A DNA stretch of 64,000 nucleotides, taken from IMG/VR virus record IMGVR_UViG_3300045988_177018, positions 49,928 to 113,927 of that record; one strand, 5' to 3'. The notes under the pieces were generated by a model that saw only the letters and a program-made list of their open reading frames with translations, was not told the DNA's origin and searched no databases. Below, piece by piece: positions 2,070-49,949 of the stretch. Position numbers and translations under genes: made by a program. Source of the stretch: a virus. Numbering within the stretch: the first letter of the stretch is position 1; every line of letters starts with the position of its first letter.

Positions 2070-2840
2070 TCAGTGGAATGGTTCGAATGGGATGCTGAAC
2101 ACCATATCGTAAAGGTCTTCCACATCGCCCGCAGCGGTTTGCGCGTCGGAGAGAATCTGCTGCGGCTCCCTTTCCTCTCCCCAAAGGTCGAACAGGTCGG
2201 CAACCGTATCCACCTCCCGTTCGCTTTGACTGTTGATTGCGAATCCCAACAGTCGGCCACGGTTGAGGTCGGACAATGGTTTGCTGATTTCCCTAGACCA
2301 TTCGCAAGCTGTCTTCCACGCGTCGTCGTCCATCGTGTAATCGCCGTCCACGCCATAGGTGAGCAGGTTTCCAGCGGTGTCCTCCTGCGCGACGTCGTGA
2401 ATGACGAACATGTATTCGATGGCGAGCAGGTATTCATCCAGACTGATTTCGTCGGCGTCCCAAACATGGTTCGACGGGAAATGCAGGTAGGGGTATCGGT
2501 TCACGGTCTCGTTGCCGATTTTGTCTCCCTCATGGAGCAATGCCACAGGAAGCGTGAAAATAGGGGACAGGTATACTCTTCCCTCGACGCCGCCATGCTG
2601 GTCGGTCTCCGGAATGGCGATAATCTGCTTCATCGAATTGACGATACGGTTCACATACTTGGTGGGTTTCTCCAACAGCAACGGTCTGCCGCTGGAGAAA
2701 CCTTGGAAAGCCATGACGTCATATTTCTCCACCACTGGCGTGGTATCGAACTTCGGTGGGGACAACGGGGTCATGTTCGGCTCGTCCCTCTTTTTGCTGG
2801 GGGTCGGACGGTTCTCGCCGAAGAAATCCTTATAGCTCAC
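2070..2840 (-). CDS. Hypothetical protein, translationally coupled to the VirB4-like gene
   Basis: 256-aa ORF with ordinary composition. Its start overlaps the stop of the upstream ATPase gene by 4 nt. Confidence 0.5.
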   Translation of the reverse strand: MSYKDFFGENRPTPSKKRDEPNMTPLSPPKFDTTPVVEKYDVMAFQGFSSGRPLLLEKPTKYVNRIVNSMKQIIAIPETDQHGGVEGRVYLSPIFTLPVALLHEGDKIGNETVNRYPYLHFPSNHVWDADEISLDEYLLAIEYMFVIHDVAQEDTAGNLLTYGVDGDYTMDDDAWKTACEWSREISKPLSDLNRGRLLGFAINSQSEREVDTVADLFDLWGEEREPQQILSDAQTAAGDVEDLYDMVFSIPFEPFH

Positions 2841-5497
2841 TGTTCTTGTCCTTCCTGCGTTTCAAACGCTTGCATTGCTTTCTTCTTCTCCTCTTCACGA
2901 CGAATCTTGTCGGTCGCCGTCGTGGAGATTTCCTTCAACAGGTCCGGTGGGATGATGACCTCGACGGGTACGGGCTGTTTGCTGGAATCCTTGAAATAGG
3001 CGATGGCACCGCGAATGGTCTTGTCTTTGCCGGTCTCCTTGTCTTTGACGCGCAGACGCCTCATACCAGACCAGTTCGGGTCGTCATTCTCCTTCGTGTC
3101 GCCCATGCTCATACGGGAGCGGATACGATTGCCGGAATCCTCAATCTGCAACAGCTGCAATGCGTCTCGCGCCGGAGAATCCTGAATCGGGTCGTCCAAT
3201 GCCAGCAGAAACGCTCGACCGATACCGCCTGTCATGCCCGCGTTGATGAACTCCTTGACCTTCTGCGAGGCGAACACCGGAGTGAAACGGCGGGAACGTG
3301 CGGTACGCATCCACTCGTTCACCTTGGCGGCACCCTTGTCCTCGCCCAGAATCGCCCAAGCCTCGTCGATTCCGACCATGCCGTCTCGTTCGCTCACCGC
3401 AGCACCGGCTCCGAACACAATCATGCGGAGAACCCAACGTTGGATACGTCCGGTGACGGTGTTCTCGGCACCTCGTTCCGGAATCATGGAACGGTCGCCC
3501 GCGTTGATGAGGGTCAAGTTCTGGCTGACTCGCAACGGGGTCACATTGTCGTTGGTGCCGAAGATGAGCCTCAATGATTGGTTGGTGTTGACGCTCATCG
3601 TAACCATTTTGAACACTTTCAACGTGTCCGGATACAGATCGTATTTGGACGGGTCATCGCCCGCCTGTTGGAGTGCGCGGAAGTCCGTCGCGGCCTTGTA
3701 AAGCATCGTTCCGCAGCAACGACCGCCTCTCTTGCACCCGTAATCCAGCATCGCCTTGACGGTCAACTCGTAGGAGGTGTCGCCGTCCGGTTTGAGGATG
3801 TCGGAAATCATGATGGCGGCCATATCCTTGGCCTCCTCCTCACTGCGGAGCACGTTGTACGGGTCGAAAGTGCCATCGGCGATGTCGGAATCCATTCTGA
3901 GCACGGTACCGTTGCGGGACAGCACCGCATCCTCGAAATCGTTGCCCTCCTTCGGATTGACGAGGATGCAGGGCGTCTTGCCTTTGCCGCTACGCGAGTC
4001 AATCAGCATCCACTGCAAAAACAGGCTCACCAGCAGCATGGACTTGCCGGAGCCGGTCTCGCCAATGACCAGAATGCCCGGTCGCGTGTCCTTGTCCTGC
4101 ACCGTCGTGGTGCCCACATACACGGGCTGCCGGTTCGCTTCCGTCAATCCGACCAACGCGCCCGTCTCGTCACCGGCCTTGGCGAAACTACTCACGCCGC
4201 CCCCGGCCACGCAGGTCGCCGACCAGTGAATCTCATAAGGTGTCATACGGACAGGCGAACACGCCTGCATGCTTTTGAACGCCATCAACTGCTCGTTGGC
4301 GGTGGTCAGATTCGTGAACTCGAAGTTCTGGATGTTCTGCAACGAGTCAACGGCCATCTGCGCGTTACCGGCCACACAGGCGGCCACGCTCAAATCAATG
4401 ATGCTCGGCGGCATTTCCGGCGAATTGTAGATGGCTTTCTTATAGTCCAACCGATATTTCAAATCGGTCATGTCGGCGGACGCCTCACGCCCATGCTGGT
4501 AACGCTCCTTGATGTTCTCGTCAATCGTGCGGGCGTTACGGCGAATCGTGTCGGCGGTCACCTTGCCGGGTTCGACCTTGCCCCGGATGGACGTTCCTAC
4601 AGCGTTCGCCCCACCGGCAGTGGCGACTTCCATCAATTTCGCAATCCAAAGATTGGACGGGTCGGTGATGTCCGATTGGGCGAATTGGGTGGTTCTGGCG
4701 AAGCAGATTGACGCCGGATACTCACTGTCGATGTTCCACTGGTCGCAGTCGATTCCCTCATCGTACAGGCGTTTCGCGTTCTGGCAGACCTTGCTGTTGG
4801 GGAAGAAATGCAGATGGTCGTTCTCGGCGATGATGGGAAGGGCAGACGCGGAAGCTCGGCTCACCCACCATGTCTCCATCATCGCGACCAGCTGTTCCCG
4901 TTCGCTTTCCTCCATGACGGTGAAAGGTATGAGACCGGCGTTCAGCATGATGCGTTCGATACGGTGCGCGTCAGGCAGGTATTCCTCAAACATGGCGTAA
5001 CCGTTCGCCATAGAGAAGCTGAGCTGGTTGAATTTCGTGGTGGCTCTGCGTAGGAGGGATTGTTTGCGTCCCTTCCTTCCGTCCTCGCCGCCCAGTTTCA
5101 ACGGAACCCCGATTACGGCGAACTGCTTGCACACGTTCAGATTACGGTAATAGTACGCCTGATAGCTTTTCAAATCATCCTGCTGCATGACCGGCGGACG
5201 GTAGGGGATGGGCATGGAGCCGGTCAGCAGGTGGAATTCTCTGTATTCGCTTTTCAGAATGTCACGGTATCTCATGCCAGCCACGCTGACCTCACCGGCC
5301 AACCCGTCGAAGAACGCCATGAAACCCTGTTCGGCTTCCTTGCGTTTCGAATCACCGGCACCGTCCAACAGTGCGCTCGTCCAAGGAATCTTCGCGTACA
5401 GCCATACAGTCCTGTCCGGCGTGGCCGCTCGAAGCAGACCGTATTCACTGCCGGGACTAATGAAGCTTTCCGGACGATAGAAACCGTCTCTTGCCAT
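2837..5497 (-). CDS. Conjugal transfer ATPase, VirB4/TrsE/TcpF family
   Basis: 886 aa. Walker A VIGETGSGKSML. Walker B-like IDEAWAILG. Size and motif order typical of VirB4. Confidence 0.8.
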   Translation of the reverse strand: MARDGFYRPESFISPGSEYGLLRAATPDRTVWLYAKIPWTSALLDGAGDSKRKEAEQGFMAFFDGLAGEVSVAGMRYRDILKSEYREFHLLTGSMPIPYRPPVMQQDDLKSYQAYYYRNLNVCKQFAVIGVPLKLGGEDGRKGRKQSLLRRATTKFNQLSFSMANGYAMFEEYLPDAHRIERIMLNAGLIPFTVMEESEREQLVAMMETWWVSRASASALPIIAENDHLHFFPNSKVCQNAKRLYDEGIDCDQWNIDSEYPASICFARTTQFAQSDITDPSNLWIAKLMEVATAGGANAVGTSIRGKVEPGKVTADTIRRNARTIDENIKERYQHGREASADMTDLKYRLDYKKAIYNSPEMPPSIIDLSVAACVAGNAQMAVDSLQNIQNFEFTNLTTANEQLMAFKSMQACSPVRMTPYEIHWSATCVAGGGVSSFAKAGDETGALVGLTEANRQPVYVGTTTVQDKDTRPGILVIGETGSGKSMLLVSLFLQWMLIDSRSGKGKTPCILVNPKEGNDFEDAVLSRNGTVLRMDSDIADGTFDPYNVLRSEEEAKDMAAIMISDILKPDGDTSYELTVKAMLDYGCKRGGRCCGTMLYKAATDFRALQQAGDDPSKYDLYPDTLKVFKMVTMSVNTNQSLRLIFGTNDNVTPLRVSQNLTLINAGDRSMIPERGAENTVTGRIQRWVLRMIVFGAGAAVSERDGMVGIDEAWAILGEDKGAAKVNEWMRTARSRRFTPVFASQKVKEFINAGMTGGIGRAFLLALDDPIQDSPARDALQLLQIEDSGNRIRSRMSMGDTKENDDPNWSGMRRLRVKDKETGKDKTIRGAIAYFKDSSKQPVPVEVIIPPDLLKEISTTATDKIRREEEKKKAMQAFETQEGQEQ

Positions 5498-5819
5498 TTC
5501 GGGTCAATCGCTTTCGATTTTGTGGAATTTTTCTACATTGCTGGTTTCGACTCTAACGGCTCCAAGTGTTATAAACCTTCTAAAAACGGAAAAATCCCTC
5601 CTCTGGGATGGATGTTCGAGGAGGGATTTGTGGAACGTGATGGGGTCAAAACTAGGGAACGGCTGCGTGATTATCTCCGCGAAAACGTCCGTAGCCCCAT
5701 ACCCGATACCTGAATAATGCTGACGTCACTTGAAACTTACATGAATGTCTAAAATTTTGGCAATCAGCAGTTTTTCCATCAATTGATGTAACTTTTGCCA
5801 CGGCAAAAATTACGTTGAG

Positions 5820-5871
5820 CGACTGAATTGACACTCCCGTGGTTTCAACCACGGGAGTGTCAATTCAGTCG
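5820..5871. terminator. Perfect 23-bp inverted repeat with 6-nt loop, then T-run on minus strand
   Basis: cgactgaattgacactcccgtgg-tttcaa-ccacgggagtgtcaattcagtcg overlaps the stop of the 5865..7046 gene. aatttttg follows on the transcribed strand. Confidence 0.6.
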
Positions 5872-7046
5872 TCCAGTCCGAAGTATTCCAGCGGGTCGAA
5901 GTCCATGCTCATATACTTGCCGGGATTGTCGTCTTCGACCGGCTTGGCCGGTTTGAACGGCTTGTCGATGGGCTTCTCACCTTTTTGCTTCAGTCCGGAA
6001 TAAGCCAATCGTCTCACGGTCTTGTCTGAATCGTGGGACAGCTTTCTCAACGTATCCACGGAGGCGTTTGAGTTCACGGCGATGGCACGCTTCACATGCG
6101 GACTCCACTGGTTCGACATGTACTCCAACGTATCGGGAGTCGTGTTGGGATTACCCGCCACGTTGACGCGGGTCTGAGTCCAATCGTCGTAGGCCAAAAA
6201 GCTCAACGTAGCCGATGACGCATGGGGGTTGAACGCCACCTGCTCGCGGATAGCGCTATCCTCGCTGGAGGCCAGCCGGTGCAAATCCTTCTGGGACGTA
6301 TGCTCATGCTCCGCGATGTTTCGTTGAGTCTCGTAATCGTCCACGCGAAGACATTCGTGAAGCGTATCGGCGTCGGTCTGCCAATTGCCGGACGCGGCAC
6401 GGATGATTTTCGTCATGTCATCAGTCACGGCACCCGCCTTATGGGAGGTTGGTTCCAAAGCGTCATTCACGGCTTTTCGAATCTGTTCGGAACTCAAATC
6501 CGAACGTTTCAACGTTTCCGCACGGACGATGGCCTCATTATCGTTCAACAGTCTTTCCGTCACGTTTTTCGGAGTATGGGGATTGCCCGCCACGGCACCG
6601 CGAACCTTCCACGACTCGTCGGACGAGAGAACGTCCAGCGTGTGCGCGTCCTCGGTGTTGCGGGCCACCGCATTGCGGATTTGTGGATTGTCGTCGAACC
6701 GGCATACGTTCAACGCGGTATCGTCGGCACCGCGTTCGATTGCCGTGCAGCGAACCTTGGTGTCGTATCTGACCGATTGTTGCTCGTAATTGTACCTGTT
6801 CTCCCGCTTGTCTTTTGGCGGTTCGCCGTTCGCATTCGGGTAGGTCTCGTCCTCGTCGAATGGATGGTTGAACCCGTATTCGGTAGTGGCGAGATTGTTC
6901 AGCACGGCGGTAGGTGTCCTATCATCCAAGGCCATGTTCTCCAAATCGACCGTACTGGTTTTGGAGACGACATCCTCAATCGAAGCGCCGCCATGTTCTT
7001 TAAACCATTTGCCCAGCGGGTCTCTTGCTTGTAAAGGATTGTACAT
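5865..7046 (-). CDS. Leucine-rich-repeat-variant / HEAT-like repeat protein (paralog A)
   Basis: 393 aa with repeated VRxxAAxNPxT..TLxxL units. GGAGG SD. N-terminus RDPLGKWFKEHGG shared with the next gene. Confidence 0.65.
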   Translation of the reverse strand: MYNPLQARDPLGKWFKEHGGASIEDVVSKTSTVDLENMALDDRTPTAVLNNLATTEYGFNHPFDEDETYPNANGEPPKDKRENRYNYEQQSVRYDTKVRCTAIERGADDTALNVCRFDDNPQIRNAVARNTEDAHTLDVLSSDESWKVRGAVAGNPHTPKNVTERLLNDNEAIVRAETLKRSDLSSEQIRKAVNDALEPTSHKAGAVTDDMTKIIRAASGNWQTDADTLHECLRVDDYETQRNIAEHEHTSQKDLHRLASSEDSAIREQVAFNPHASSATLSFLAYDDWTQTRVNVAGNPNTTPDTLEYMSNQWSPHVKRAIAVNSNASVDTLRKLSHDSDKTVRRLAYSGLKQKGEKPIDKPFKPAKPVEDDNPGKYMSMDFDPLEYFGLDD

Positions 7047-7063
7047 TCCTCCTCCAATTTCTT

Positions 7064-8287
7064 TTAGTATTCGAATTGGATATCGTCGTATCCGCTATCG
7101 TCGTTGAAATCGACTCCCGCGTATTCGTCCGAAAGCCTTTGATTCTCACGGCAATGTTCAAGATTCATGACGGCCCTACGGCTGACTTTCTCGTCCTTGT
7201 CTTCGCTTAGCGTCTCCAACGTGTGAAAGCTGGTGTTCGGATTGCCCGCCACATGAAGTCTCGTCTCTGAGTCCTTCGACTGGGAGAGCCTGTCGAGCCT
7301 GTCCGGCACCGTGCAGTGTTCCGCCATGGGGCGGGTGCTGATGGTGTTGGTCATGTCGAAACGGTTCAGTATGCCCTGCGCCGACGAATCGTAGCCTAGC
7401 TTATGGAGTTTTTCGCACTGCTCGGACGAGGCGTGGTAGAGGAACTGGTCGGCCAATTTCGTCTCCGCGTCGATAGCCATGGCGGGGCATTTCATCCTGC
7501 CTTTGCTAAGGGGGAAGGTGGTTCCCGCCCTGCCGTCCGTCCATTTGCTGTGACCGGCCTCGAAGATTTGCAAGGCTGCGTCGTAGTCGCCGTTCCTAGC
7601 CGCCTCCGTGGCTATCTCCGACGCGTACGCGTCGCAGACATGCAGTTTCTCGTTGGTCTCGATATAGTCGTTGTAACCGTCCTGCCACGGTAACGGCATG
7701 GGGTCTCTCACATCGTCGTAGTCCATAAGCTCTTCGAGCCTCAGTGTTTGATGGTATCTGTTCTGCACGAGCAGGACGCTGGGATTACCGTAATCGCCTT
7801 CCTTGCAGTATTCCAGCGAACGGTTCCGACACCATGCCATGAGAGCGTAGTCGGCAATGTCCTTGTCGGCGTCGCCTTCGAGCCGTTCCAGAGTGTTGGT
7901 CGGGGTGTTGCGGTTGAGGGCCACGGCACGTTTCACATAGAAGTTGTCATCGTCCGCCATCATGTCGAGCGTCTTGCCGTCCAGTTTCGGATTGGACGCG
8001 ACTGCCGTGCGCTCCCTCACGTCGTCGCTGTACTTGAACGAGTCAAGCGTCTCGTCGCTGATGTTCGGGTTCATCAGCGCCTCCAGCCGGTTGTCCTCGT
8101 CTTTGCCGGTCTTGGCTATCTGGTCAATTACCGCTGTCGGCGTGTTTTTGGTATCGACAGCCGACTCATGCTCTTCCACATAGTTGAGATTTTTGACGTT
8201 ATCGGCAAGACTTGCCTTCGGATTGCCACCATGCGCTTTCATCCACTTGCCCAGCGGGTCGCGCGGTTCTGACGGACTGTATGCCAT
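7064..8287 (-). CDS. Leucine-rich-repeat-variant / HEAT-like repeat protein (paralog B)
   Basis: Same repeat architecture, with N-terminal PRDPLGKWMKAHGG. Start set at the second Met (GGAGG 7 nt upstream); the ORF extends to 8317. Confidence 0.65.
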   Translation of the reverse strand: MAYSPSEPRDPLGKWMKAHGGNPKASLADNVKNLNYVEEHESAVDTKNTPTAVIDQIAKTGKDEDNRLEALMNPNISDETLDSFKYSDDVRERTAVASNPKLDGKTLDMMADDDNFYVKRAVALNRNTPTNTLERLEGDADKDIADYALMAWCRNRSLEYCKEGDYGNPSVLLVQNRYHQTLRLEELMDYDDVRDPMPLPWQDGYNDYIETNEKLHVCDAYASEIATEAARNGDYDAALQIFEAGHSKWTDGRAGTTFPLSKGRMKCPAMAIDAETKLADQFLYHASSEQCEKLHKLGYDSSAQGILNRFDMTNTISTRPMAEHCTVPDRLDRLSQSKDSETRLHVAGNPNTSFHTLETLSEDKDEKVSRRAVMNLEHCRENQRLSDEYAGVDFNDDSGYDDIQFEY

Positions 8288-8358
8288 AAAAGAAAACCTC
8301 CGTTTCGCTGTAAACAACCTTACACGAAACGGAGGTGCCGTCCTTGCTGTTAATGGAA

Positions 8359-8676
8359 TTAGGCTCCTGCCTGAGCGGTGTCGTTTTTGACTACGAGCAT
8401 GTATTCGTCAACCAGTTCCTTGAGTTCCGGATTCTGTTCCGGACTGATGTCCACGCCAAGCTTCGGGTTCTTGTAGAACGCGTAATTCGGTTTCGCCGCA
8501 ATGGACAGGCTCAGGTCTTCAACCTCCCACTTGTCTCCCGTACCACGGTTCAGATTGAGGAACATGGCCCGTGCGAACCATTCCTTCCCTTCCGAGTCGG
8601 TGACTTTAATCATTGGTTGAATCTTATGGGTGATGTCGGCTGTGAGGCGTTTGCCCGGTATGATGATTTTCGGCAT
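8359..8676 (-). CDS. Hypothetical protein
   Basis: 105-aa ORF, coupled to the upstream gene. Confidence 0.45.
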   Translation of the reverse strand: MPKIIIPGKRLTADITHKIQPMIKVTDSEGKEWFARAMFLNLNRGTGDKWEVEDLSLSIAAKPNYAFYKNPKLGVDISPEQNPELKELVDEYMLVVKNDTAQAGA

Positions 8677-11636: not shown

Positions 11637-12692
11637 TCAAAGACCGTGCTTGGTCAGATACTTATTGGAGATAATTTTAAAGCAACGGTTGCCGCCAAGC
11701 TCGTTATACAGGTCGTCGCTCAACCGTTCACCCGCTTTCGCATGCCAGACGATTCCTTCATCCAACATGTCGCGGTTCGCGTTGCCGCGCAGACCGTCCA
11801 CTTTGGCAATCATGTCCATCACATCGCCGGTCGGCTTCCACTCGGCCTCGTCCAACAGTGGGACGGCATTGTCGAGCATGGCTTTCGGCCAATCCTCGCG
11901 GTCGAGTTTCGCATTGTCATGCCATACGGCGAACACGAATGGACGATAGGAGCCAAGCTTCAACCTGTTGCTGTTGACACTTGGGCCGCACAGCTCGAAC
12001 TGGCAGACCATGCCTTTCTCCAACGCGTCAACCAATCCGGTTTTCACCGCCACTTGCATGTTCGTGCAGTCCGACTTCAGCTCCCAATTGCGAGAGTAGA
12101 CGTGTACCGTATCATCCATGTCACGGTAGATTGTGGTGCTGGTACCGTCCACTTTCACGGTTGGCGTCCACGCAATCCGTTTGATTTCATCCCAATACGC
12201 GGTGAGATTCTGCACTCGCGTAGCATCCGACTTGGAGCATGGCGCATTGAACACGCCAACCATATCCCCGCCTTTCAAAGGCGGTAGTTCCTCGAATTTC
12301 CACACGTCCGCCTGTAAGGTGATATCAGTGCCGACCGGAGTATCCTCCGGCACGCCAATAGCAGAGAGCGGCATGACCAAACCCTGACTGTATACGCCTC
12401 GCAGTCTTGCGGTCTTCAACACGTGTCCGGTGATTTCGCGTTCTTCGCCGGTAATCGTGTTGGACACTGGCACGGTGCGCTGCCCACGTTTCTGCAATTC
12501 CGCATACCGTGGGTCGTCGGCGGGCAGCATGGAGTCGATTTCGTAATAGGCCACATGGTCGCCGGGTTTCAATCCCATGTCCTTGCCGACTACGACAATC
12601 CATCCTCCGATTTTCGCTTTCTCGATACGGTCTGCATCCTTGATTGGGTACACGCCTTCAACGGCTTGCACGCTTACCATTTTTCGAACCAT
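11637..12692 (-). CDS. ATP-dependent RNA ligase family protein (nucleotidyltransferase KxDG motif)
   Basis: 351 aa. OB-like N-terminus KDADRIEKAKIGGW..GDHVAYYEIDSMLP is typical of phage/bacterial RNA ligases. Motif I KVDGT. Confidence 0.55.
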   Translation of the reverse strand: MVRKMVSVQAVEGVYPIKDADRIEKAKIGGWIVVVGKDMGLKPGDHVAYYEIDSMLPADDPRYAELQKRGQRTVPVSNTITGEEREITGHVLKTARLRGVYSQGLVMPLSAIGVPEDTPVGTDITLQADVWKFEELPPLKGGDMVGVFNAPCSKSDATRVQNLTAYWDEIKRIAWTPTVKVDGTSTTIYRDMDDTVHVYSRNWELKSDCTNMQVAVKTGLVDALEKGMVCQFELCGPSVNSNRLKLGSYRPFVFAVWHDNAKLDREDWPKAMLDNAVPLLDEAEWKPTGDVMDMIAKVDGLRGNANRDMLDEGIVWHAKAGERLSDDLYNELGGNRCFKIISNKYLTKHGL

Positions 12693-13946: not shown

Positions 13947-15465
13947 TATACGCGCATAGTGATATAATCTAATCATGTCCCAGAAGGTCGTGATAGAACG
14001 TGTTGTGATACGGGGAGCCGCCCCGTATGTGGGCATGTGCGCGGCCTCGGACGGACGGCAAATCCCCTTGTATTCGACCAACCCCGACATAGTGATGCGT
14101 TGGCTGTGCGACGGGTGGCGTTGCCGATACAACCAGTTGCGTTCCCGTAGAGCCAAATGGGATAAAAACCTTGGCATAAGCATTCCGTTGGGCGGGAAGC
14201 CGGACATGCGCTCCGACCGTCAGGTAAGACTGGAATGCTCGTGGCTCGCGGCCATCCCCGCAATGGTGCTGCAATCCCCGAACAGGATAGAGAACACGGA
14301 CTGGTGGAGCGCGAACAAACGTCGCAAAACGTTGAAGAAGAAGCATAGGAACCCGGGCATGACGCCCGGGTTCAAAAAACGGCGTGACGACCTGTATTTC
14401 GTCTGCTGGCACAACAAGGGCGCGAACGCGAACTACCGGCAGTTGAACCGGCATCACGGCGAAGTCGTCATCACCGGACAGAACCCCAGCGCATATCGTC
14501 TGGACGGCCAGCCGTGCCGGTACAGCATCCACATCCGCGTCCGCGTCAGCCAACCCATCCGCGACTATACGAGCGTCGGAGTGAACTGGACGAAACGAAC
14601 GCTCGTGTTCGTCAACGACCCGTTGCCGATAAACCGAGAACGCACCGGCGCGATGGTCGGATTGGACAGGGGTTGCGTGCATACGCTCGCCACGTCCGAC
14701 AATCGTTTCATCGACCTCCCCAAAGACCGGTTGAACCATATCGACAGGGAGATACGCCGCCGTCAGAAGGCTCAGGCGCGACGAATCGCCATGTCCGGCG
14801 AAACCGTCAAACAATACCGTCGCCACGCGAGCCGCACCTACGAGCGCACCGGTCGGGAAATCAGCCGACTGTACGCGAAGGCGCACCGCATCATAGACGA
14901 CTGGCAGCACAAGACCACCAGCATGCTCGTCCGCGAATACGACGTCATCGTATTGGAAGACCTCAACCTGCAAGGCATGAGCCGCAAAGCCAAGGCGAAA
15001 CCCGACCCGGACAGGCCGGGCGCGTTCCTACCCAACGGACAGTCGGCGAAACGTGGACTCAACCGTAGCCTACGCGCCGCAAGCCTCGCCGGAATCGTCA
15101 GCAAACTCGAATACAAGACCCGACTGACCGGACGAAACCGTCTCATACTCGTCAACCCCGCGTACACGTCGCAGACATGCAGCAAGTGCGGGCATTGCGC
15201 CAAGGAGAACCGCAAAAGCCAAGCGGACTTCGAATGCGGGCAATGCCACGCGCGCATGAACGCCGACTTGAACGCGGCCAACAACATCCTCGAACGGGGA
15301 TTGAACCATCTCCTCGGCTTGGACGAAGCCGGGCACGCCGAAACGGAGCCAGACGCCCAACCCGCCTATCGCGGGAAGGACGCTTCCGCCATGACGTGCG
15401 AAACCTCAACACGATAACGTGTTGGAATCCCGGTGTTTCAACACCGGGAGGACGTCAATTCGCAT
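13947..15465 (+). mobile_element. IS200/IS605-family element, TnpB-only (IS1341-like); boundaries approximate
   Basis: Carries a TnpB-like gene. Right-end hairpin cccggtgtttcaacaccggg at about 15431..15450. No tnpA. Confidence 0.5.
14206..15417 (+). CDS. tnpB: TnpB-like RNA-guided endonuclease (IS605 OrfB family), intact RuvC I/II/III and zinc ribbon
   Basis: GLDRG, LEDLNLQGM, NADLNAANNI, CSKCGH..CGQCH. The ORF is open from 13975 (480 aa) behind a gatataat -10. The N-terminal half is atypical for TnpB. Confidence 0.6.
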   Translation: MRSDRQVRLECSWLAAIPAMVLQSPNRIENTDWWSANKRRKTLKKKHRNPGMTPGFKKRRDDLYFVCWHNKGANANYRQLNRHHGEVVITGQNPSAYRLDGQPCRYSIHIRVRVSQPIRDYTSVGVNWTKRTLVFVNDPLPINRERTGAMVGLDRGCVHTLATSDNRFIDLPKDRLNHIDREIRRRQKAQARRIAMSGETVKQYRRHASRTYERTGREISRLYAKAHRIIDDWQHKTTSMLVREYDVIVLEDLNLQGMSRKAKAKPDPDRPGAFLPNGQSAKRGLNRSLRAASLAGIVSKLEYKTRLTGRNRLILVNPAYTSQTCSKCGHCAKENRKSQADFECGQCHARMNADLNAANNILERGLNHLLGLDEAGHAETEPDAQPAYRGKDASAMTCETSTR

Positions 15466-20017: not shown

Positions 20018-20431
20018 GTGAAACTTGAATCGAATCATCATTCGGTGTTCCTCATGCATTATCATCTCGTGCTCGTCGTGAAATACCGTCGCAAAGTCTT
20101 TGATGACACGATTTCCAATCGCGCACGGGAGATTTTCGAGTACATCGCACCCAAGTACGGCATCACGTTGGAGGAATGGAATCATGACGTGGACCACGTG
20201 CATGTCCTGTTCCGCGCCCAGCCGAAGACCGAACTGTCGAAGTTCATCAACGCGTACAAGAGCGCCAGCAGCCGCCTGTTGAAACAGGAGTTCCCCGGAA
20301 TCAGATGCAAGCTTTGGAAGGAGTGTTTCTGGAGCCGTAGCTTCTGCCTGCTCACCACGGGCGGCGCACCCGTCGAGGTGATACGCAAATACATCGAGAA
20401 CCAAGGCGAGAAGAGCCGAACCCAAGCATGA
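20018..20431 (+). CDS. tnpA: IS200/IS605 Y1 (HUH) transposase TnpA
   Basis: HYHLVLVVKYRR and HVHVLF HUH motifs. GTG start at 20018 is likely; the ORF is open from 19970. Confidence 0.8.
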   Translation: MKLESNHHSVFLMHYHLVLVVKYRRKVFDDTISNRAREIFEYIAPKYGITLEEWNHDVDHVHVLFRAQPKTELSKFINAYKSASSRLLKQEFPGIRCKLWKECFWSRSFCLLTTGGAPVEVIRKYIENQGEKSRTQA

Positions 20432-21597
20432 AGACACATATCGCCGTGAGGTTCCGCGCCTATCCCACCGAAGAACAGGCACGGCTGATAGACCGCACCA
20501 TCGGCTGCGCACGCTTCGTATACAACCTCATGCTCGAAACCCGCATCGCCCACTATCAGACCACATGGGAATCATGCCGTCCCACGCCCGCCCTGTACAA
20601 GGACACGTACCCGTTCCTACGCGAAGTGGATAGCTTCGCTCTTTGCAACGCGCAACTCGCATTGGAGAAGGCGTACAAGAGGTTCTTCGAGGACAGGAAA
20701 ACAGGTTTTCCGAAGTACAAGTCGAAACGTCGGGGCAGGAAGACATACACGACGAATCTGTCCCACGGCAACATCGAATTGGATGACAAGGCAAGGAGGT
20801 TGAAACTACCCAAGCTCGGATGGTTGGCGGTCCGCCAACACAAGCGTATCCCCGACGATTGGAAACTGAAATCCGTCACCGTGGAGCATTGTCCTTCCGG
20901 AAGATACACCGCGACAATCCTTTTCGAGTACGAGACCCAAATACCCGAAAAAGTGAGGCCAGTGAAGACTGTCGGATTGGACTACGCGTCTCACGGCCTG
21001 TATGTTTCCAGTGACGGGGAGCACGCCGAATATCCGGGCTACTATCGAAAAATGCAGGACAAGCTCGCCAGAGAGCAACGCAAGCTTTCCCATATGGTCA
21101 AAGGTTCCGCCAACTGGCGTAAACAGTGCAAGCGGGTCGCCCGACTGTATGAGAAGACCGCCAATCAAAGACGCGACTACCAGCATAAGAAAGCCAACAG
21201 GATTGTCGCATCATACGATATGGTCGGCGTGGAGGCTCTGAGCATGAAAAGCATGATGAAGAAACCCGAGCCGAAACCAGACCCCGAACGTCAGGGACAT
21301 TATCTTCCCAATGGTCGCAAAGCCAGAAAAGGTTTGGCTAAAAGCACGTCGGACAACGGGTATGGCATGTTCTGCACCATGTTGGAATACAAGCTCGCCC
21401 GTCAAGGCAAACGGTTGGTTCATGTGGGCAAATGGTATCCGTCCAGCCAACTATGCTACGACTGCGGTTACAAGAATCCTCTGGTCAAGGATTTAAGTAT
21501 CCGCGAATGGGCGTGCCCATCATGTGGAGTGTTGCATGACCGTGACGTGAACGCCGCCCGGAATATTCGGGATGAGGCAATGAGAATCATCGAATAG
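20428..21597 (+). CDS. tnpB: TnpB RNA-guided endonuclease (IS605 OrfB)
   Basis: Classic N-terminus MKTHIAVRFRAYPTEEQ..RFVYN. C-terminal CYDCGY..CPSCG zinc ribbon and RuvC III (DRDVNAARNI). Confidence 0.85.
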   Translation: MKTHIAVRFRAYPTEEQARLIDRTIGCARFVYNLMLETRIAHYQTTWESCRPTPALYKDTYPFLREVDSFALCNAQLALEKAYKRFFEDRKTGFPKYKSKRRGRKTYTTNLSHGNIELDDKARRLKLPKLGWLAVRQHKRIPDDWKLKSVTVEHCPSGRYTATILFEYETQIPEKVRPVKTVGLDYASHGLYVSSDGEHAEYPGYYRKMQDKLAREQRKLSHMVKGSANWRKQCKRVARLYEKTANQRRDYQHKKANRIVASYDMVGVEALSMKSMMKKPEPKPDPERQGHYLPNGRKARKGLAKSTSDNGYGMFCTMLEYKLARQGKRLVHVGKWYPSSQLCYDCGYKNPLVKDLSIREWACPSCGVLHDRDVNAARNIRDEAMRIIE

Positions 21598-28036: not shown

Positions 28037-28963
28037 TTAAATCTCGCGCTCGGCACGCTCCCAAATCTTCCGGCGAATCTCACTGTCCTCGGAGAACATC
28101 GCACCCAACTTCAATACTTGACGAACCGCTTTGCGATAATCTTCCATACGCACACGAAGAGCCCATCGAGCTTCGCCCTTGAACGCCCGATTGATGAACG
28201 AATCCGGCATGTCTCTCATATTCTGAACCAGCTCGTAACGCTCCAGTCTGTCAGCTTCCTCCCACGCTTTCATGATGATTTCACGGGTTGCCCACCGAGG
28301 TTTAACGGCCAGCACACTGGCCACGTCTTGCGGTTTGAGTCGTTTGAGCACTTCGTCTACTTCGCTGTCATCGGACAAGAGGGCCGCTTGGGCGCGAATT
28401 CCGGTGTAGGGGCTTTCCAGCCAGTGGGACAGGCACTCTTTATTAACGTCATGGTTACGGATGACGTTGCTGACCACGCGCTCATTCTCCTCCGTGAAGA
28501 AGTTGCAGACGTCGGCTTTTTTCGCCGCGATATAACGAACCTCCCAATCCTTGTCGTGGGACAGGGCGTTCGACGTTTCCTTGTCAAGCTTGTCGTACTT
28601 GTCGAGCAGTTCCACGGCTTTCCTGCGAATCTCCGCACTCCTGTCCCGCAGGGCCACTTGGGAAAGTGCGTTGACCGGCAGGTTGTGAATATCGTATTCG
28701 CCCCAGTCGAAGTAGTAGTGTCGGAGCGTGAGCGGGAGTTCGGAGAGTTTGCCGGAGTCGAAATGCTGTCTGATGTCGGCTAGTTCCTTTTCGCCTTTTT
28801 GGGTGAGCTTCCACGTGTGTTTTTCTTCGTTGCGTTGCACCAGTCCGGCGTTGGCGAGTTTGGTGAGATTCCGGTCATCGTACGCCGCTTGGCGTTCTGG
28901 TTTGTGTTCGAAGCGGAGGAAGTCGTAGATTGCGGTTTCGTTCCAGTTGATGTTGTCGCTCAT
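28037..28963 (-). CDS. HEAT/PBS-lyase-like repeat protein
   Basis: Start at MSDNINW. Repeated ..EVR..AA../..EIRRKAVELL helical units. Confidence 0.45.
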   Translation of the reverse strand: MSDNINWNETAIYDFLRFEHKPERQAAYDDRNLTKLANAGLVQRNEEKHTWKLTQKGEKELADIRQHFDSGKLSELPLTLRHYYFDWGEYDIHNLPVNALSQVALRDRSAEIRRKAVELLDKYDKLDKETSNALSHDKDWEVRYIAAKKADVCNFFTEENERVVSNVIRNHDVNKECLSHWLESPYTGIRAQAALLSDDSEVDEVLKRLKPQDVASVLAVKPRWATREIIMKAWEEADRLERYELVQNMRDMPDSFINRAFKGEARWALRVRMEDYRKAVRQVLKLGAMFSEDSEIRRKIWERAEREI

Positions 28964-28986
28964 TTTCGTTCCTTTTGATTTCCTGT

Positions 28987-29008
28987 TTGTGTGAACAATT
29001 CCAGCATA
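28987..29008 (-). promoter_or_regulatory. Conserved promoter/leader motif copy
   Basis: ttgtgtgaacaattccagcata. Confidence 0.55.
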
Positions 29009-29027
29009 GCATAGAATAGAGAAACGC

Positions 29028-29462
29028 TCAACCACGAACCCAATCGACAAAACGTCCGAAACCATCAAACGGAACCAACGAATACAACAACCAGCCAACA
29101 AGCGCCAGCAATGCAAGCACCGCAATCGCATACACCAGCGTGCCCACGAACAAGCCAGCCAAAAACACGTTCATCTGCCGTTCGCGCAGCTCCAGCAGCT
29201 CATACCATTCGCTCTCGCACCGGTCGAATGCGTCAGCATCCATGCCGGTGCCTCCATGGGCTTGAAGCCAATCGCGTACGGTCGGCATGGGAGGCAACGG
29301 GTCGGATATGCAAGCGTGCGGCATGAGGGCGGTTTTAAGCCCTTGCCAAACGCCGTTGAAAAAGAACGAGGGAAAACGTGCGGCAGTCACCGTGCTGGAC
29401 ATCACTTTTCCACCTGTTCTCTTCGTCCGACAATCTTCTTGCCGCCCACGCTCCTCAACCAT
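29028..29462 (-). CDS. Hypothetical membrane protein
   Basis: C-terminal TM (LFVGTLVYAIAVLALLALVGWLLY). Confidence 0.4.
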   Translation of the reverse strand: MVEERGRQEDCRTKRTGGKVMSSTVTAARFPSFFFNGVWQGLKTALMPHACISDPLPPMPTVRDWLQAHGGTGMDADAFDRCESEWYELLELRERQMNVFLAGLFVGTLVYAIAVLALLALVGWLLYSLVPFDGFGRFVDWVRG

Positions 29463-46676: not shown

Positions 46677-47124
46677 AGAATCATTTCAACAGACACAAGA
46701 AGCGTTGGATACTGCGAGACTGGAACGGGCGCGAGCATTGCAACAGGTTCAGACATTATGCGAGACGGGACGCAGGCATTTGGTCATTCCGTTTCTGATG
46801 GCGAACATGCAACGTGTTCCCTCGTTACGGAAAATACGACTCTGGCAATTGGATTCGATAATGTTCAACACTTCCAGACGGGTTGCGAACAAAACCATCC
46901 GTATCATGCGTGAGACCATCAACGATGGTTCGAGCGTGAACGACGGGTACGTGACTTTGGGCTGGGCGTTGGAGTCGAAGGAGAAAACCGTCCGTATGAC
47001 GACGTGGCTTCTTCAATTGTCATTGCGCGAGAAGCTTTCCACTTTCCAAAAGCCGGAAGGCTTCCCATATGCGCCGTTATATCAGCAAAGCACAGACGAC
47101 CAACAGAAAGAAGGTAGCGCATGA
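46666..47124 (+). CDS. Hypothetical protein
   Basis: ORF from MASTEES, coupled to the T4CP gene. Confidence 0.4.
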   Translation, partial: ASTEESFQQTQEALDTARLERARALQQVQTLCETGRRHLVIPFLMANMQRVPSLRKIRLWQLDSIMFNTSRRVANKTIRIMRETINDGSSVNDGYVTLGWALESKEKTVRMTTWLLQLSLREKLSTFQKPEGFPYAPLYQQSTDDQQKEGSA

Positions 47125-49781
47125 GTGGCCAGAACTGGTATCAGATAACCAGAACATTGCAACAGCTTGACGCGGACGAGCAACGTTCGAAGGTGGAGAG
47201 CATTCCCGCTGAACTGGACGGTTGCACACTGCTCCTCATCAAGAAAGGCGAGGAGCCGGTCAAGGAATACATTTACGGCGACGGCGAGGGAATCATCAAC
47301 GCCGGACAGTTGGCTGGATTCGACGCGAAACTGGTCGAAGACGATGATGGGCCGGTGTTGCCGGACGGTGTGGACAGTGCGGCGCATCCTCTCGTCCCGT
47401 TCCGTGCCCGGTTGAATTCGAAAAGCAACATGGAGAAAATGCGGACGAACTATTCCGGCATTCGCACAAGCATCGAGAAGGTCATGCCGCCGGACAGTTA
47501 CGTGAGCGTCACCCTCCGCAATCAGGGATACTTCGAACAGATACGCGTCCGCAATTGGATTAGCGACGAATACAATACCGTAGAGGATTCAAGCGAACTC
47601 GCTTCGACCAACACGATGTGCGCCCGAGTGAGTTTCGGCTGTAGACAGGCTTCCCGCGACCGGCAGCTTGCGCAGAAGATTGGCCAAATCATCTGTCCGC
47701 TCATATCCAACATGTCAAGTCATACGAGCCGTCCGAAGTTCGGGCTGCTGTTCGTCGGCATGTTGCTGGAAGCGTTGTCTTTGATTTGGAGCGTGTGCGG
47801 TCTTGCAAGAGGATACGTGATGGATGGCGTGTTCCCGCTGTTTCATTCCGCTTGGGGTTTCGGCGTGGCTCTTCCACTGCTTGCTGTGACATTGGTAGCG
47901 TTCCTGCTCCTAATGCTGCTGTCATGCATTCCGTTCGTCTATCTTCCGCGACCTCAGATTGCGGGAGTGTCCGTCGCCTTCGCCTTTTACCTGCTGTTGG
48001 GGCTGCTTCCTCTCCCCACGTTCGTTCCGGTTCTTCTCATCCCTCTTCTCGTATTCGCGTTCATCCGTTGGAGGAACTGGACGTTGTGGGATGATATTTT
48101 CCAGACTCCGCGCAGATATTATGCGATTGCGAACGACCGTGGCGCGAACGATTCCGACAACCATACGCGTCTTGGCGTCAGAACGAAGGAGTCGCGCGTA
48201 TCCGCTTACGGTGCGCAGAGAACCACGTTGATTCTTCCTCCGATTATCGTAAGCTCCGTGTTCACCCCGGTCACTCAGGGAGTGGCGATGAAACAGGAAT
48301 TGCATCCCGTTCCGGAAGTGTTGGCGCATGACGGTATCTTCCTTGGGAAGGACGATACCGGACGTGACTGCTATCTCGACCCGTCGCAACTGTTCGGCGG
48401 TATCGCAATCAACGGCGAGGCCGGTTCCGGTAAGACAGTGCTCACGCATGGCATCAGCCAGTGGGCCATCAGCGCACGCGAGACCACCAGTCCGAAAATC
48501 TGGGGGCGCGACTCCCGTATCATCCACTTCTGGATGAAGGATGATACGGGAGTGAACGTGTTGGAACGTTACCGCAGACACCACGGTTTCACCAGTCCGC
48601 AACGCGTCGTCTATTTGGCCGACCCGAACAGTGTGTGCTTGGACATGCTCGGCATGAAGGACGGAAACAATGCCATGGAGACTGCGGCGAGCGTTGCCAA
48701 GACCATGCGCTACTCGTTCGACGACGGCGACATTCTCAATGATTCGCAGAACATCATCACCCAAGCGTTGACCATCGGCGTGGCGGTTGACCGTTACGTG
48801 CAGGAGGAACGCAAACGCAATCCCGACTCCAACGACGCGGGTTGGGAGAGTGAGATTGTGAAACGCTGCCATCAGCTCGAACAATCGTATCCGGGTGCGG
48901 AACAGTTGCGGATGCAGTTGAGTCCAATCGGATGGGCGGTCGTCGCATTGTGTGGCTCCGACGGTCAGGCGGGTTCCGCCAAAGCGTTGGGGCATGTGTG
49001 CCGCGCGTTGACCATGGAGTTGAAAAGCGGCTACATGTTCGACGAGATGACGTATGCTGCCCGTGCCGCCGAACAATTGTATGGCCGTCCGGATGCTGCC
49101 GGACATACGGTTCGTTCCGACCGTGACATTCTCGCCAAGACTAACGCCTCGTTGAACAAGGTCAACCAGTTCCTTCCCATCGAACACATGTTCACGGCAC
49201 GTCGCGGCAAGGTGACGTGGACGAACATTCTCGACCATGCCGGAGACTACCACATCGTTCTCGCGCCGCATGAAGGTTATTCGCTGCCGGAACGTATGGA
49301 TAAGATTCTCGGCGGATGGCTCATGTACCGTTTCTGGAACACGGTGTTCTCGCATTGCAAGGATTGGGACAAGGCTGGAAAGTGGACGATGCTCGTATGC
49401 GACGAGCTAAGTCTGCTGGCGAACGGCAATGATGGCATCATGCCCGCCTTGCGCGAGCAAGGTCGCTCGTTCGGATTGCTTCTCGTGTTCGCCACGCAGT
49501 ATCCGACGCAGTTGTCCTATGCGATGTTGGATTCGTTCATCGGCTATTCGACGTTCATCACATACAATACGACGATTCCCCGTATAGCCGACATGACGGC
49601 GAAACGTCTGACGAACAATGATGGCGAGGATGGCTGGCGTTCCGGCGCGGTCATGAACCTTCCGCGTTATGCTGCGGCTGTGCGAACGCGCACTCAGGAG
49701 CAGTTGCAGCCGACGTTCCTTGTCCATGTGAACGATTTCGATGACGGCTATCGTGATGGCGACGTGGAGGAGGACGACTAG
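47121..49781 (+). CDS. Type IV coupling protein (VirD4/TcpA/FtsK-like ATPase)
   Basis: 886 aa. TM block at about aa 200-320. Walker A GEAGSGKTVL. Walker B LVCDELSLL. Confidence 0.7.
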   Translation: MSGQNWYQITRTLQQLDADEQRSKVESIPAELDGCTLLLIKKGEEPVKEYIYGDGEGIINAGQLAGFDAKLVEDDDGPVLPDGVDSAAHPLVPFRARLNSKSNMEKMRTNYSGIRTSIEKVMPPDSYVSVTLRNQGYFEQIRVRNWISDEYNTVEDSSELASTNTMCARVSFGCRQASRDRQLAQKIGQIICPLISNMSSHTSRPKFGLLFVGMLLEALSLIWSVCGLARGYVMDGVFPLFHSAWGFGVALPLLAVTLVAFLLLMLLSCIPFVYLPRPQIAGVSVAFAFYLLLGLLPLPTFVPVLLIPLLVFAFIRWRNWTLWDDIFQTPRRYYAIANDRGANDSDNHTRLGVRTKESRVSAYGAQRTTLILPPIIVSSVFTPVTQGVAMKQELHPVPEVLAHDGIFLGKDDTGRDCYLDPSQLFGGIAINGEAGSGKTVLTHGISQWAISARETTSPKIWGRDSRIIHFWMKDDTGVNVLERYRRHHGFTSPQRVVYLADPNSVCLDMLGMKDGNNAMETAASVAKTMRYSFDDGDILNDSQNIITQALTIGVAVDRYVQEERKRNPDSNDAGWESEIVKRCHQLEQSYPGAEQLRMQLSPIGWAVVALCGSDGQAGSAKALGHVCRALTMELKSGYMFDEMTYAARAAEQLYGRPDAAGHTVRSDRDILAKTNASLNKVNQFLPIEHMFTARRGKVTWTNILDHAGDYHIVLAPHEGYSLPERMDKILGGWLMYRFWNTVFSHCKDWDKAGKWTMLVCDELSLLANGNDGIMPALREQGRSFGLLLVFATQYPTQLSYAMLDSFIGYSTFITYNTTIPRIADMTAKRLTNNDGEDGWRSGAVMNLPRYAAAVRTRTQEQLQPTFLVHVNDFDDGYRDGDVEEDD

Positions 49782-49949
49782 CTGTCAGATTCCGGCTTGA
49801 CAAGTTGAAGTGAATCCGTTCGGAACATCCAGTTTCCGGACGGATTTTTTTAGCTTAAAAACCCCGCTATAGATGGAAACAGCCGTGTAGGTTGATAGGA
49901 TGAAGAACGCAGGAGAGTTCCGTTTGGAAAAACGAAAGGGAACTCAAAA

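Follow-up and report, generated by a model that had tools for sequence, protein, structure and literature searches.

Two paralogous LRV-repeat proteins encoded beside a VirB4-like ATPase gene of a putative bifidobacterial megaplasmid begin with a short motif found in phage proteins

The sequence analysed here, called the window below, is a stretch of 64,000 nucleotides (positions 49,928 to 113,927) from the IMG/VR record IMGVR_UViG_3300045988_177018. Its gene content indicates a conjugative megaplasmid of the Bifidobacterium type, and we regard the element as a distant cousin of pMP7017, a bifidobacterial megaplasmid that has been shown experimentally to conjugate (PMC10832533, PMC8313286). 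Two adjacent genes, here named A and B, lie on the minus strand of the window upstream of a gene encoding a VirB4-like ATPase. Gene A (5865..7046) is an open reading frame (ORF) of 393 aa, and gene B (7064..8287) encodes 407 aa when counted from its ATG codon. The start of B is supported by the sequence GGAGG, located 9 nt before the ATG at 8287, and by the homologues of B, which begin at the same residue. Gene A begins 17 bp after B and has its own site of the ribosome-binding-site (RBS) type, GGAGGAGGA. The two products share 27% identity (E = 2e-18), showing that they are paralogues. An earlier annotation of the window made from the DNA letters alone, referred to below as the original prediction, had reported two adjacent paralogous genes of 393 and about 407 aa, and this is confirmed.

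Both proteins have a three-module architecture: a short conserved N-terminal peptide, which we call the handle, a body containing leucine-rich repeat variant (LRV) repeats, and an acidic tail. All parts listed here are encoded on the minus strand. In A, the handle region covers residues 2-20, YNPLQARDPLGKWFKEHGG (6987..7043), and was recognized from the alignment of the A family and from its match to the phage motif YNPxQxRDxxGxW, which is discussed below. It stands at the head of a family-specific region of approximately 95 aa, which is followed by the LRV solenoid (residues 96-354; 5985..6761) and by a disordered acidic C-terminal tail (5868..5984). The end of the tail, DFDPLEYFGLDD, is kept in the family. 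In B, the handle region covers residues 3-21, YSPSEPRDPLGKWMKAHGG (8225..8281), and is kept across the B family, mostly as YNPSEPRDPLGKW. The body of B is split into an N-terminal LRV block (residues 45-140; 7868..8155), a central insert (residues 142-300; 7388..7864) and a C-terminal LRV block (residues 304-388; 7124..7378), the last of which aligns to residues 290-357 of A. The protein ends in an acidic and aromatic tail (7067..7123) with the terminal sequence DDSGYDDIQFEY, which is kept in the B family as well.

The assignment of the repeats is based on profile searches, sequence periodicity and predicted structures. LRV is the only Pfam family that exceeds its gathering cut-off in A and B. 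The respective cut-offs are 21.6 bits for LRV, 27 for LRV_2, 23.5 for HEAT and 27.7 for HEAT_2. The product of gene A scores 60.4 bits with LRV and 39.6 bits with LRV_2, and the product of gene B scores 46.5 bits with LRV. The canonical HEAT models remain below the cut-off for A (HEAT 22.4, HEAT_2 24.4) and give no match in B. From the label “LRV/HEAT-like” of the original prediction, the LRV part is therefore retained and the HEAT part is not. The BLOSUM autocorrelation peaks at lag 26 in both proteins, with z = 5.2 in A, where a harmonic is seen at lag 52, and z = 3.7 in B. Both values lie above the 95th percentile of shuffled sequences (z = 3.3), so that the formal test for periodicity bears out the repeats in A as well as in B. 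The AlphaFold (AF2) model of A is an all-helical solenoid with a mean predicted local distance difference test score (pLDDT) of 88.5 and a predicted TM score of 0.79. The solenoid is built of about 9-10 helix pairs, one per 25-26 residues, extending from approximately residue 96 to 354. The best match among solved structures in a Foldseek search is 1LRV (TM 0.65 on the target), and the remaining structural matches are generic ARM and HEAT solenoids. From these sequence comparisons, A and B are best classified as new members of the known LRV repeat family. Searches of A and B against NCBIfam were uninformative, as were those against PHROGs, which contained no structural match.

The model of B is weaker, with a mean pLDDT of 77. 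It contains about 3.5 repeats at residues 45-140, where Pfam LRV matches residues 92-114 and the helix pairs have pLDDT values of 85-95, and about three repeats at residues 304-388. Between them lies the insert of 160 residues, which forms long helices, is not LRV-like, has no Pfam match and is kept within the B family. Whole-chain matches of B in the PDB are generic, and the 1LRV-like arrangement of helix pairs is confined to the two terminal blocks. The description of both proteins as almost entirely helical repeats thus applies to residues 96-354 of A and fails for B. A third, shorter subfamily, B′, is represented by P0169 (299 aa), which consists of the handle, LRV repeats alone and an acidic-aromatic tail, DPSGWNDTDFEW. 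P0169 has no central insert, which shows that the insert of B is optional. A gene of the B′ type also seems to be present upstream of A in the related locus L096. The members of the A and B families and P0169 all end in a disordered tail with many acidic and aromatic residues; the pLDDT values of the tails are 48-61 in A and 33-43 in B. Both proteins are acidic, with isoelectric points (pI) of 4.7-5.1 and net charges of -19 and -29, which is ordinary for this element. The idea that A and B are DNA mimics was dropped, as their acidity is no greater than that of their neighbours.

The handle of A and B is the 13-residue sequence YNPxx(P/A)RDPLG(K/R)W, followed by HGG. It occupies residues 2-14 of A and residues 3-15 of B and is kept within the families although overall identity falls to 39-43%. 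In 13 sequences of the A family with overall identity down to 39%, the residues Y2, P4, R8, D9, L11, G12 and W14 are invariant. P0169 begins with the same peptide. Thus, the shared N-terminal motif noticed in the original prediction is real and is invariant across both families. Among the ORFs of the window, the handle motif occurs in A and B only, and none of the approximately 130 generic LRV proteins retrieved in the searches contains it. The presence of the handle in A, B and B′ and its absence from generic LRV proteins imply that it is a separate, selected module. A phmmer search with the first 95 residues of A against 1.84 billion representative sequences returned only members of the A, B and B′ families as true matches. 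Two further matches to repeat proteins were rejected as spurious, one being a large protein resembling adhesins and the other an ankyrin protein with a match to WLLQHGGASIKE.

Outside the plasmid family, the handle was found in phages. A tblastn search with the 28-residue handle peptide led to the first residues of gp16 of mycobacteriophage Barnyard, MAYNPLQARDRKGRWV. Gp16 is a very basic protein of 211 aa whose gene belongs to the head module and precedes that of a MuF-like protein by two positions, and the same protein start is seen in other cluster H phages. The back-translated pattern YNPxQxRDxxGxW was found at 105 loci in IMG/VR, and a reversed-codon control was found at none. About 24 of the 105 loci belong to the megaplasmid family itself. 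The remaining 81 are phage-like and range from 37 to 74% in G+C content, which implies that any partner of the motif is either very widespread or DNA itself. Positions that had not been constrained in the search are also biased in the 72 distinct motif contexts drawn from these 81 loci: position 5 is proline in 44 of them and position 11 is arginine or lysine in 59, and a run of glycines follows the motif. On the basis of these sequences, the motif can be written as YNPxQ(P/A)RDxxG(R/K)W and is a portable short linear motif.

Pfam scans of 20 phage ORFs bearing the motif show that it comes after Portal_Mu or MuF domains and precedes Zeta_toxin (5 ORFs), ADPrib_exo_Tox (3 ORFs), ART-PolyVal and PI3/PI4-kinase-like domains. 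NUDIX and Acb1 domains share polyproteins with it. The motif is located at the N-terminus in stand-alone effectors and is present in up to three copies in giant polyproteins. Giant portal, MuF or Acb1 fusions with the handle are encoded at L015 3319-7695, L039 254-4210, L103 1306-5979 and L018 8551-13065. There are three copies in L015 and two in L039, each followed by a glycine-rich tether, and one copy in L018; L103 has two adjacent ORFs with one copy apiece. The arrangement of the handle in the phage polyproteins looks like a modular cassette grammar. Effectors that are delivered together with DNA by phages and conjugative elements were described by Iyer, Burroughs, Anand, de Souza and Aravind in 2017 (PMC5512222). 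The phage proteins carrying the motif belong to the class of packaged and injected effectors treated in that work, which implies that the handle marks delivered proteins. The motif is named neither in the paper of Iyer et al. (PMC5512222) nor in the MuF-toxin paper; written in several ways, it was not found in the searchable literature, and Pfam scans of fragments of 32-42 residues around it gave no family. The handle and its combination with LRV proteins appear to be undescribed so far.

The handle also heads a second protein family of these megaplasmids. The pMP7017 protein WP_052791205.1 (511 aa; L120 14075-15610) begins with MPWNPRQPRDPAGRW, and its 18 homologues, with identities down to 36%, all begin with variants of the handle such as WDPKKHLRDPLGRF and YNPAQPRNPIGQW. 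One of the homologues is from Parascardovia denticolens. The members of this family (P0179-P0197) are about 480-510 aa long, are unrelated to A and B, and have no Pfam, NCBIfam or LRV match. Their genes lie elsewhere on the plasmid, near RepA_C and PD-(D/E)XK genes, and no homologue is encoded in the 64-kb window. At L123 10001-11446, the gene of this family adjoins two RepA_C genes and an ORF of 1338 aa. pMP7017 further encodes a protein with an LPD28 domain (L121 38050-39060), a domain associated with large polyvalent proteins, and this provides an independent tie between the plasmid family and polyvalent effectors. A tblastn search of plasmids with a phage-type handle peptide gave no match, the query being probably too short to reach significance.

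Sequences closely homologous to A (P0001-P0017) and to B (P0121-P0131) come from metagenome assemblies only, on contigs of up to 227 kb. Species genomes of GTDB were scanned with the alignment of the A family and with the ATPase, and no relative of either was found. The gene order is constant in 32 of 32 related loci: the gene for a 105-aa protein, the optional gene B, gene A, the ATPase gene, a gene for a 256-aa protein, a hydrolase gene and, further on, FtsK/SpoIIIE. The positional link to the VirB4-like gene, which the original prediction had proposed to look for in other plasmids, is therefore real. The position is conserved, and the genes occupying it are variable. Gene B is missing in L002-L006, and in L004-L006, the most divergent relatives, its slot is filled by a gene on the opposite strand encoding an AAA_16/AAA_22 STAND-like ATPase (L004 8619-9836). 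In pMP7017 and the Bifidobacterium longum plasmids, the gene for the 105/107-aa protein is followed directly by the ATPase gene. No LRV homologue was detected by tblastn anywhere in these plasmids. In the tblastn searches of plasmids with A and B, only generic LRV proteins were returned, and the match on a Lactococcus plasmid has no handle. In 12 relatives from IMG/VR, the middle of A (window 6228-6981) is replaced by a 1.77-kb IS200/IS605 element with TnpA and TnpB genes. A separate disruption of A, independent of the first, is present in L028 and L102. Gene A is thus destroyed by insertion sequences (IS) in at least 14 relatives, by at least two events.

Across the loci, identity amounts to 97% for the ATPase, 41-98% for A, 56-97% for B and approximately 76% for the 105-aa protein. 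The ratio of nonsynonymous to synonymous substitution rates (dN/dS, Nei-Gojobori) is 0.12-0.18 for A and 0.32-0.40 for B, and 0.03 for the ATPase; A and B evolve 4-10 times faster than the ATPase. A and B are therefore functional genes under purifying but relaxed selection, dispensable and fast-evolving, in a variable slot. When they were tested as core components of the pMP7017-type conjugation cluster, they proved not to be present in all plasmids bearing the cluster, and their evolutionary rate was unlike that of a machine gene. Dispensability, fast evolution and the variable slot argue against a core part of the machine. The original prediction had offered two roles for the repeat proteins, that of a conjugation accessory and that of a delivered effector whose N-terminal peptide serves as a targeting signal. 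Considering that an LRV gene is lacking in conjugative pMP7017 and in the B. longum megaplasmids, that B is optional and A repeatedly destroyed, and that both evolve fast, a core role as conjugation accessory is unlikely. The other option fits better and is partly supported: the handle is an independent module, it is linked to effector modules in phages, and it occurs in a second plasmid family, with translocation itself being presumed.

We propose that A and B are probably optional cargo proteins rather than parts of the transfer machine. They would be fast-evolving cargo genes placed in the slot between the gene of the 105-aa protein and that of the VirB4-like ATPase. The handle would dock them either to the DNA or to some part or substrate of the apparatus that transfers it, and the docked proteins would travel with the DNA and act at or after transfer. 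There, the LRV alpha-solenoid would bind, and probably sequester, a factor of the host or recipient. In phages, the handle on its glycine-rich tether heads or links the modules of proteins that are packaged in the capsid and coinjected with the DNA. The docking, the co-transfer and the solenoid target are put forward tentatively, as a possible explanation with a somewhat less than even chance of being correct. Several observations weigh against it. The phage motif travels with portal and MuF domains of head packaging, none of which are encoded in the plasmid window, and a BLAST comparison of the window ORFs with those of the phage loci revealed no shared candidate receptor. In pACHL01, a related actinobacterial plasmid, the 42 kb surrounding the gene of the homologous ATPase contain no motif-bearing ORF. 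None of 71 phage motif-bearing ORFs has an LRV payload, and A and B, with pI values of 4.7-5.1, are no more acidic than is usual for the element. In the AF2 model, residues 10-17 of A form a helix of fair confidence, so that the handle could be a packed cap rather than a free peptide. Finally, the partner of the handle and the exit of A and B from the donor cell are points that we infer. A much wider version of the proposal, which we consider rather unlikely, would make YNPxQ(P/A)RDxxG(R/K)W, together with relatives such as W(N/T/D)Pxx(Q/H)(P/L)RDPxGRF, a universal cargo handle on a flexible tether, which loads unrelated proteins onto DNA-delivery machines or DNA and serves phage capsids and Gram-positive conjugative type IV secretion systems (T4SS) alike. 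A and B would then be the first solenoid cargos of this handle that are not enzymes, and as binding or decoy proteins they would go ahead with the plasmid and neutralise a factor of the recipient.

Other functions have to be considered for the two proteins. They could act on the donor side as adaptors or scaffolds of the T4SS, in which case the solenoid would bridge the ATPase, an FtsK-like coupling protein or the cell-wall hydrolase, and the handle would plug into one of these; the proteins would tune transfer and stay in the donor. Alpha-solenoids are typical scaffolds, and the place upstream of the ATPase gene is invariant in the 32 loci, on the same strand and in a cluster reaching to the lysozyme/CHAP hydrolase and FtsK/SpoIIIE. 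However, A and B are absent from conjugative pMP7017 (PMC10832533, PMC8313286) and from the B. longum plasmids that carry the cluster, they are frequently disrupted by IS elements, and they evolve much faster than the ATPase, their supposed partner. Moreover, a strong hairpin and a spacer of 367 bp separate A from the ATPase gene in the window. We regard this role as unlikely, a little more so than a function of A and B as cargo acting in the carrying cell, which is itself doubtful. In the latter case, the proteins would have no connection with transfer and would be, for example, a regulator, a decoy for factors of the host or of phages, or a part of a defence or anti-defence system, placed where they are only because the junction is a hot spot of recombination and insertion, and the handle would bind a widespread cellular factor or stabilise the protein. 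The slot is indeed variable, with IS elements, the opposite-strand AAA_16 gene of L004-L006 and the optional B; identity around it is mosaic (about 76% for the 105-aa protein against 97% for the ATPase), and the motif occurs in phages of 37-74% G+C. What speaks against such a function is that PADLOC gave no match, that the close family is confined to this megaplasmid lineage and always found at the same position, and that the motif in phages is associated with packaged or injected proteins and not with housekeeping genes.

It is also conceivable, though improbable, that the handle does nothing by itself in A and B and is a relic of a junction between shuffled effector cassettes, a recombination or proteolytic-processing site of polyproteins that came along when an LRV gene gained the head of such a cassette. 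The motif lies between the domains of giant phage polyproteins, with up to three copies per ORF, as would suit a junction of this kind, and processing of polyvalent proteins was proposed by Iyer et al. 2017 (PMC5512222). However, A and B are stand-alone proteins, and nothing would be set free by a cut at residue 2-3. The motif is also invariant while identity falls to 39-43% within A and to 27% between A and B, and it is kept at the N-terminus of the second plasmid family down to 36% identity.

Cargo delivered with the plasmid, the role preferred here, can be compared with known systems. The LRV protein of Azotobacter vinelandii (1LRV; PF01816, PF25591) resembles A and B in its repeat family and in its solenoid of alternating helices. 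In contrast to this protein, A and B are devoid of an Fe-S cluster domain, and they possess the handle and the acidic tail, neither of which occurs in the generic LRV proteins obtained from the searches. The repeat period is 24 residues in the 1LRV-type protein and approximately 26 in A and B. B additionally contains the 160-residue non-LRV insert, and both genes are plasmid-borne beside a T4SS ATPase gene. The internal proteins of phage T4 carry a short N-terminal capsid-targeting peptide on unrelated payloads and are packaged and injected with the DNA; the targeting signal is cleaved by the prohead protease. The logic proposed for the handle is the same, but the two peptides are not known to have any sequence similarity, and a conjugative plasmid is not known to involve a protease or a capsid. 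The WP_052791205.1 family is found on the same type of megaplasmid and has the handle directly after the start codon, whereas its body is unrelated to A and B and it is encoded in another region of the plasmid. With the polyvalent, MuF- and portal-fusion effectors (Iyer et al. 2017, PMC5512222), A and B have the handle peptide in common, which is a short motif and not a domain. Both groups are encoded by mobile elements with a DNA-delivery apparatus. A and B differ from these effectors in having a single payload, which is a repeat scaffold, without MuF, portal, peptidase or enzymatic domains, and in that their delivery is a presumed one.

Downstream of A, the window contains a perfect inverted repeat (5820..5871) with arms of 25 nt (5820-5844 and 5847-5871), which overlaps the stop codon of A. 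Its RNA fold has an energy of -59.8 kcal/mol (z = -10.2), and no U-tract follows directly after the stem. Exact copies are found only in L029 and L037, the two closest relatives. A 31-nt core of the palindrome is identical to the hairpin beside the IS200/IS605 TnpA/TnpB genes in L008 (7020-7050) and L009 (6576-6606), and for this reason the inverted repeat is probably a derivative of an IS200/IS605 end. The hairpin-bearing segment of the spacer (approximately 5642-5864) has no counterpart in the closest relatives in which A is intact, and by comparison with them it is an insertion. The element had been called a perfect 23-bp inverted-repeat terminator: it is perfect and folds strongly, but its arms are 25 nt long, the U-tract is not in place and the core is IS-like. 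It may nevertheless terminate transcription. A second, A/T-rich hairpin of 11-12 bp (5788..5813) is located directly downstream. Upstream of B, between it and the gene of the 105-aa protein, there is a hairpin with a stem of 12 bp (8296..8336), whose 3′ arm contains the RBS of B and which is followed by the T-run TTTTCTTTT. It could terminate upstream transcription or mask the start of B.

The ATPase gene (2837..5497, minus strand) encodes a protein of 886 aa that matches Pfam AAA_10 with 44.2 bits (cut-off 27.5). The VirB4/TrbE models of NCBIfam (TIGR00929 and TrbE) have cut-offs of 643-1020 bits and match the protein only locally, with 25-29 bits. The protein should be called VirB4-like, a designation based on AAA_10 and on the context. 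A had been placed directly upstream of a conjugative ATPase gene; it is indeed the neighbour of this AAA_10 ATPase gene, but at a distance of 367 bp, and the scores with the VirB4 models are far below the cut-offs. The ATPase shares 63-67% identity with its counterparts in pMP7017 and the related B. longum plasmids. At the DNA level, a megablast search of the window against plasmids matched only part of the ATPase gene, with approximately 74% identity to the B. longum megaplasmids, and against phages it gave no match. In the B. longum megaplasmids (L001 9099-13418, NZ_CP146883.1; hits H30-H34), the homologous ATPase is annotated with 1439 aa, and the 886-aa protein of the window matches it in two pieces over approximately 4.3 kb. 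This points to a large insertion within the VirB4-like gene, which could be an intein or an additional domain.

Beyond the ATPase gene follow the genes for a 256-aa protein and for a hydrolase of 618 aa that combines lysozyme, glucosaminidase and CHAP domains. On the other side, the gene of the 105-aa protein (8359..8676, minus strand) is the conserved upstream neighbour, and its homologue in pMP7017 directly precedes the ATPase gene. The three small conserved upstream genes (105, 175 and 177 aa) have no family match. The window also encodes DnaB, ParA-like, SPFH, RNA-ligase and IS200/IS605 TnpB proteins. The RNA-ligase gene (11637-12692, minus strand) encodes a PHA02142 OB-fold and RNA-ligase domain and is kept in relatives (L002) as well as in pMP7017, with the annotation “RNA ligase family protein” in the latter. 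The two TnpB genes of the IS200/IS605 type are located at 13975-15417 and 20428-21597 on the plus strand; such elements are common throughout pMP7017. A second P-loop ATPase of 886 aa is encoded on the plus strand (47121-49781) and gives only weak HerA / mad8-like and NACHT-like matches. pMP7017 has a homologue of similar size, annotated as “AAA family ATPase”. Megaplasmid contigs of this family with lengths of 100-217 kb (those behind L014-L112) are filed as viral in IMG/VR despite their T4SS-like cluster, an example being IMGVR_UViG_3300029653_000083 (216,833 bp).

A third protein of the window (28037-29131, minus strand) had been considered another HEAT-like protein. It reaches 22.8 bits with HEAT, below the cut-off of 23.5, shows no periodicity, and was aligned to the A family by hhalign with a probability of 8%. 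It was therefore rejected as a relative of A and B. PADLOC gave no match for A, B or this protein at E <= 0.1.

The LRV family is large and has no assigned function. A and B place one of its lineages in a defined and testable setting, the conjugative megaplasmid of gut bifidobacteria. More important than the LRV proteins themselves is the handle. A single 13-residue peptide is common to at least three protein families of megaplasmids with a T4SS, to the portal or MuF polyproteins of phages, and to toxin and anti-defence modules that stand alone. If the handle is not a loading signal, A and B are ordinary accessory repeat proteins. If it is one, it would provide a sequence rule for proteins that travel with DNA both in infection and in conjugation. 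It could then be used to list early-acting effectors in metagenomes and as a tag for sending chosen proteins into bifidobacteria.

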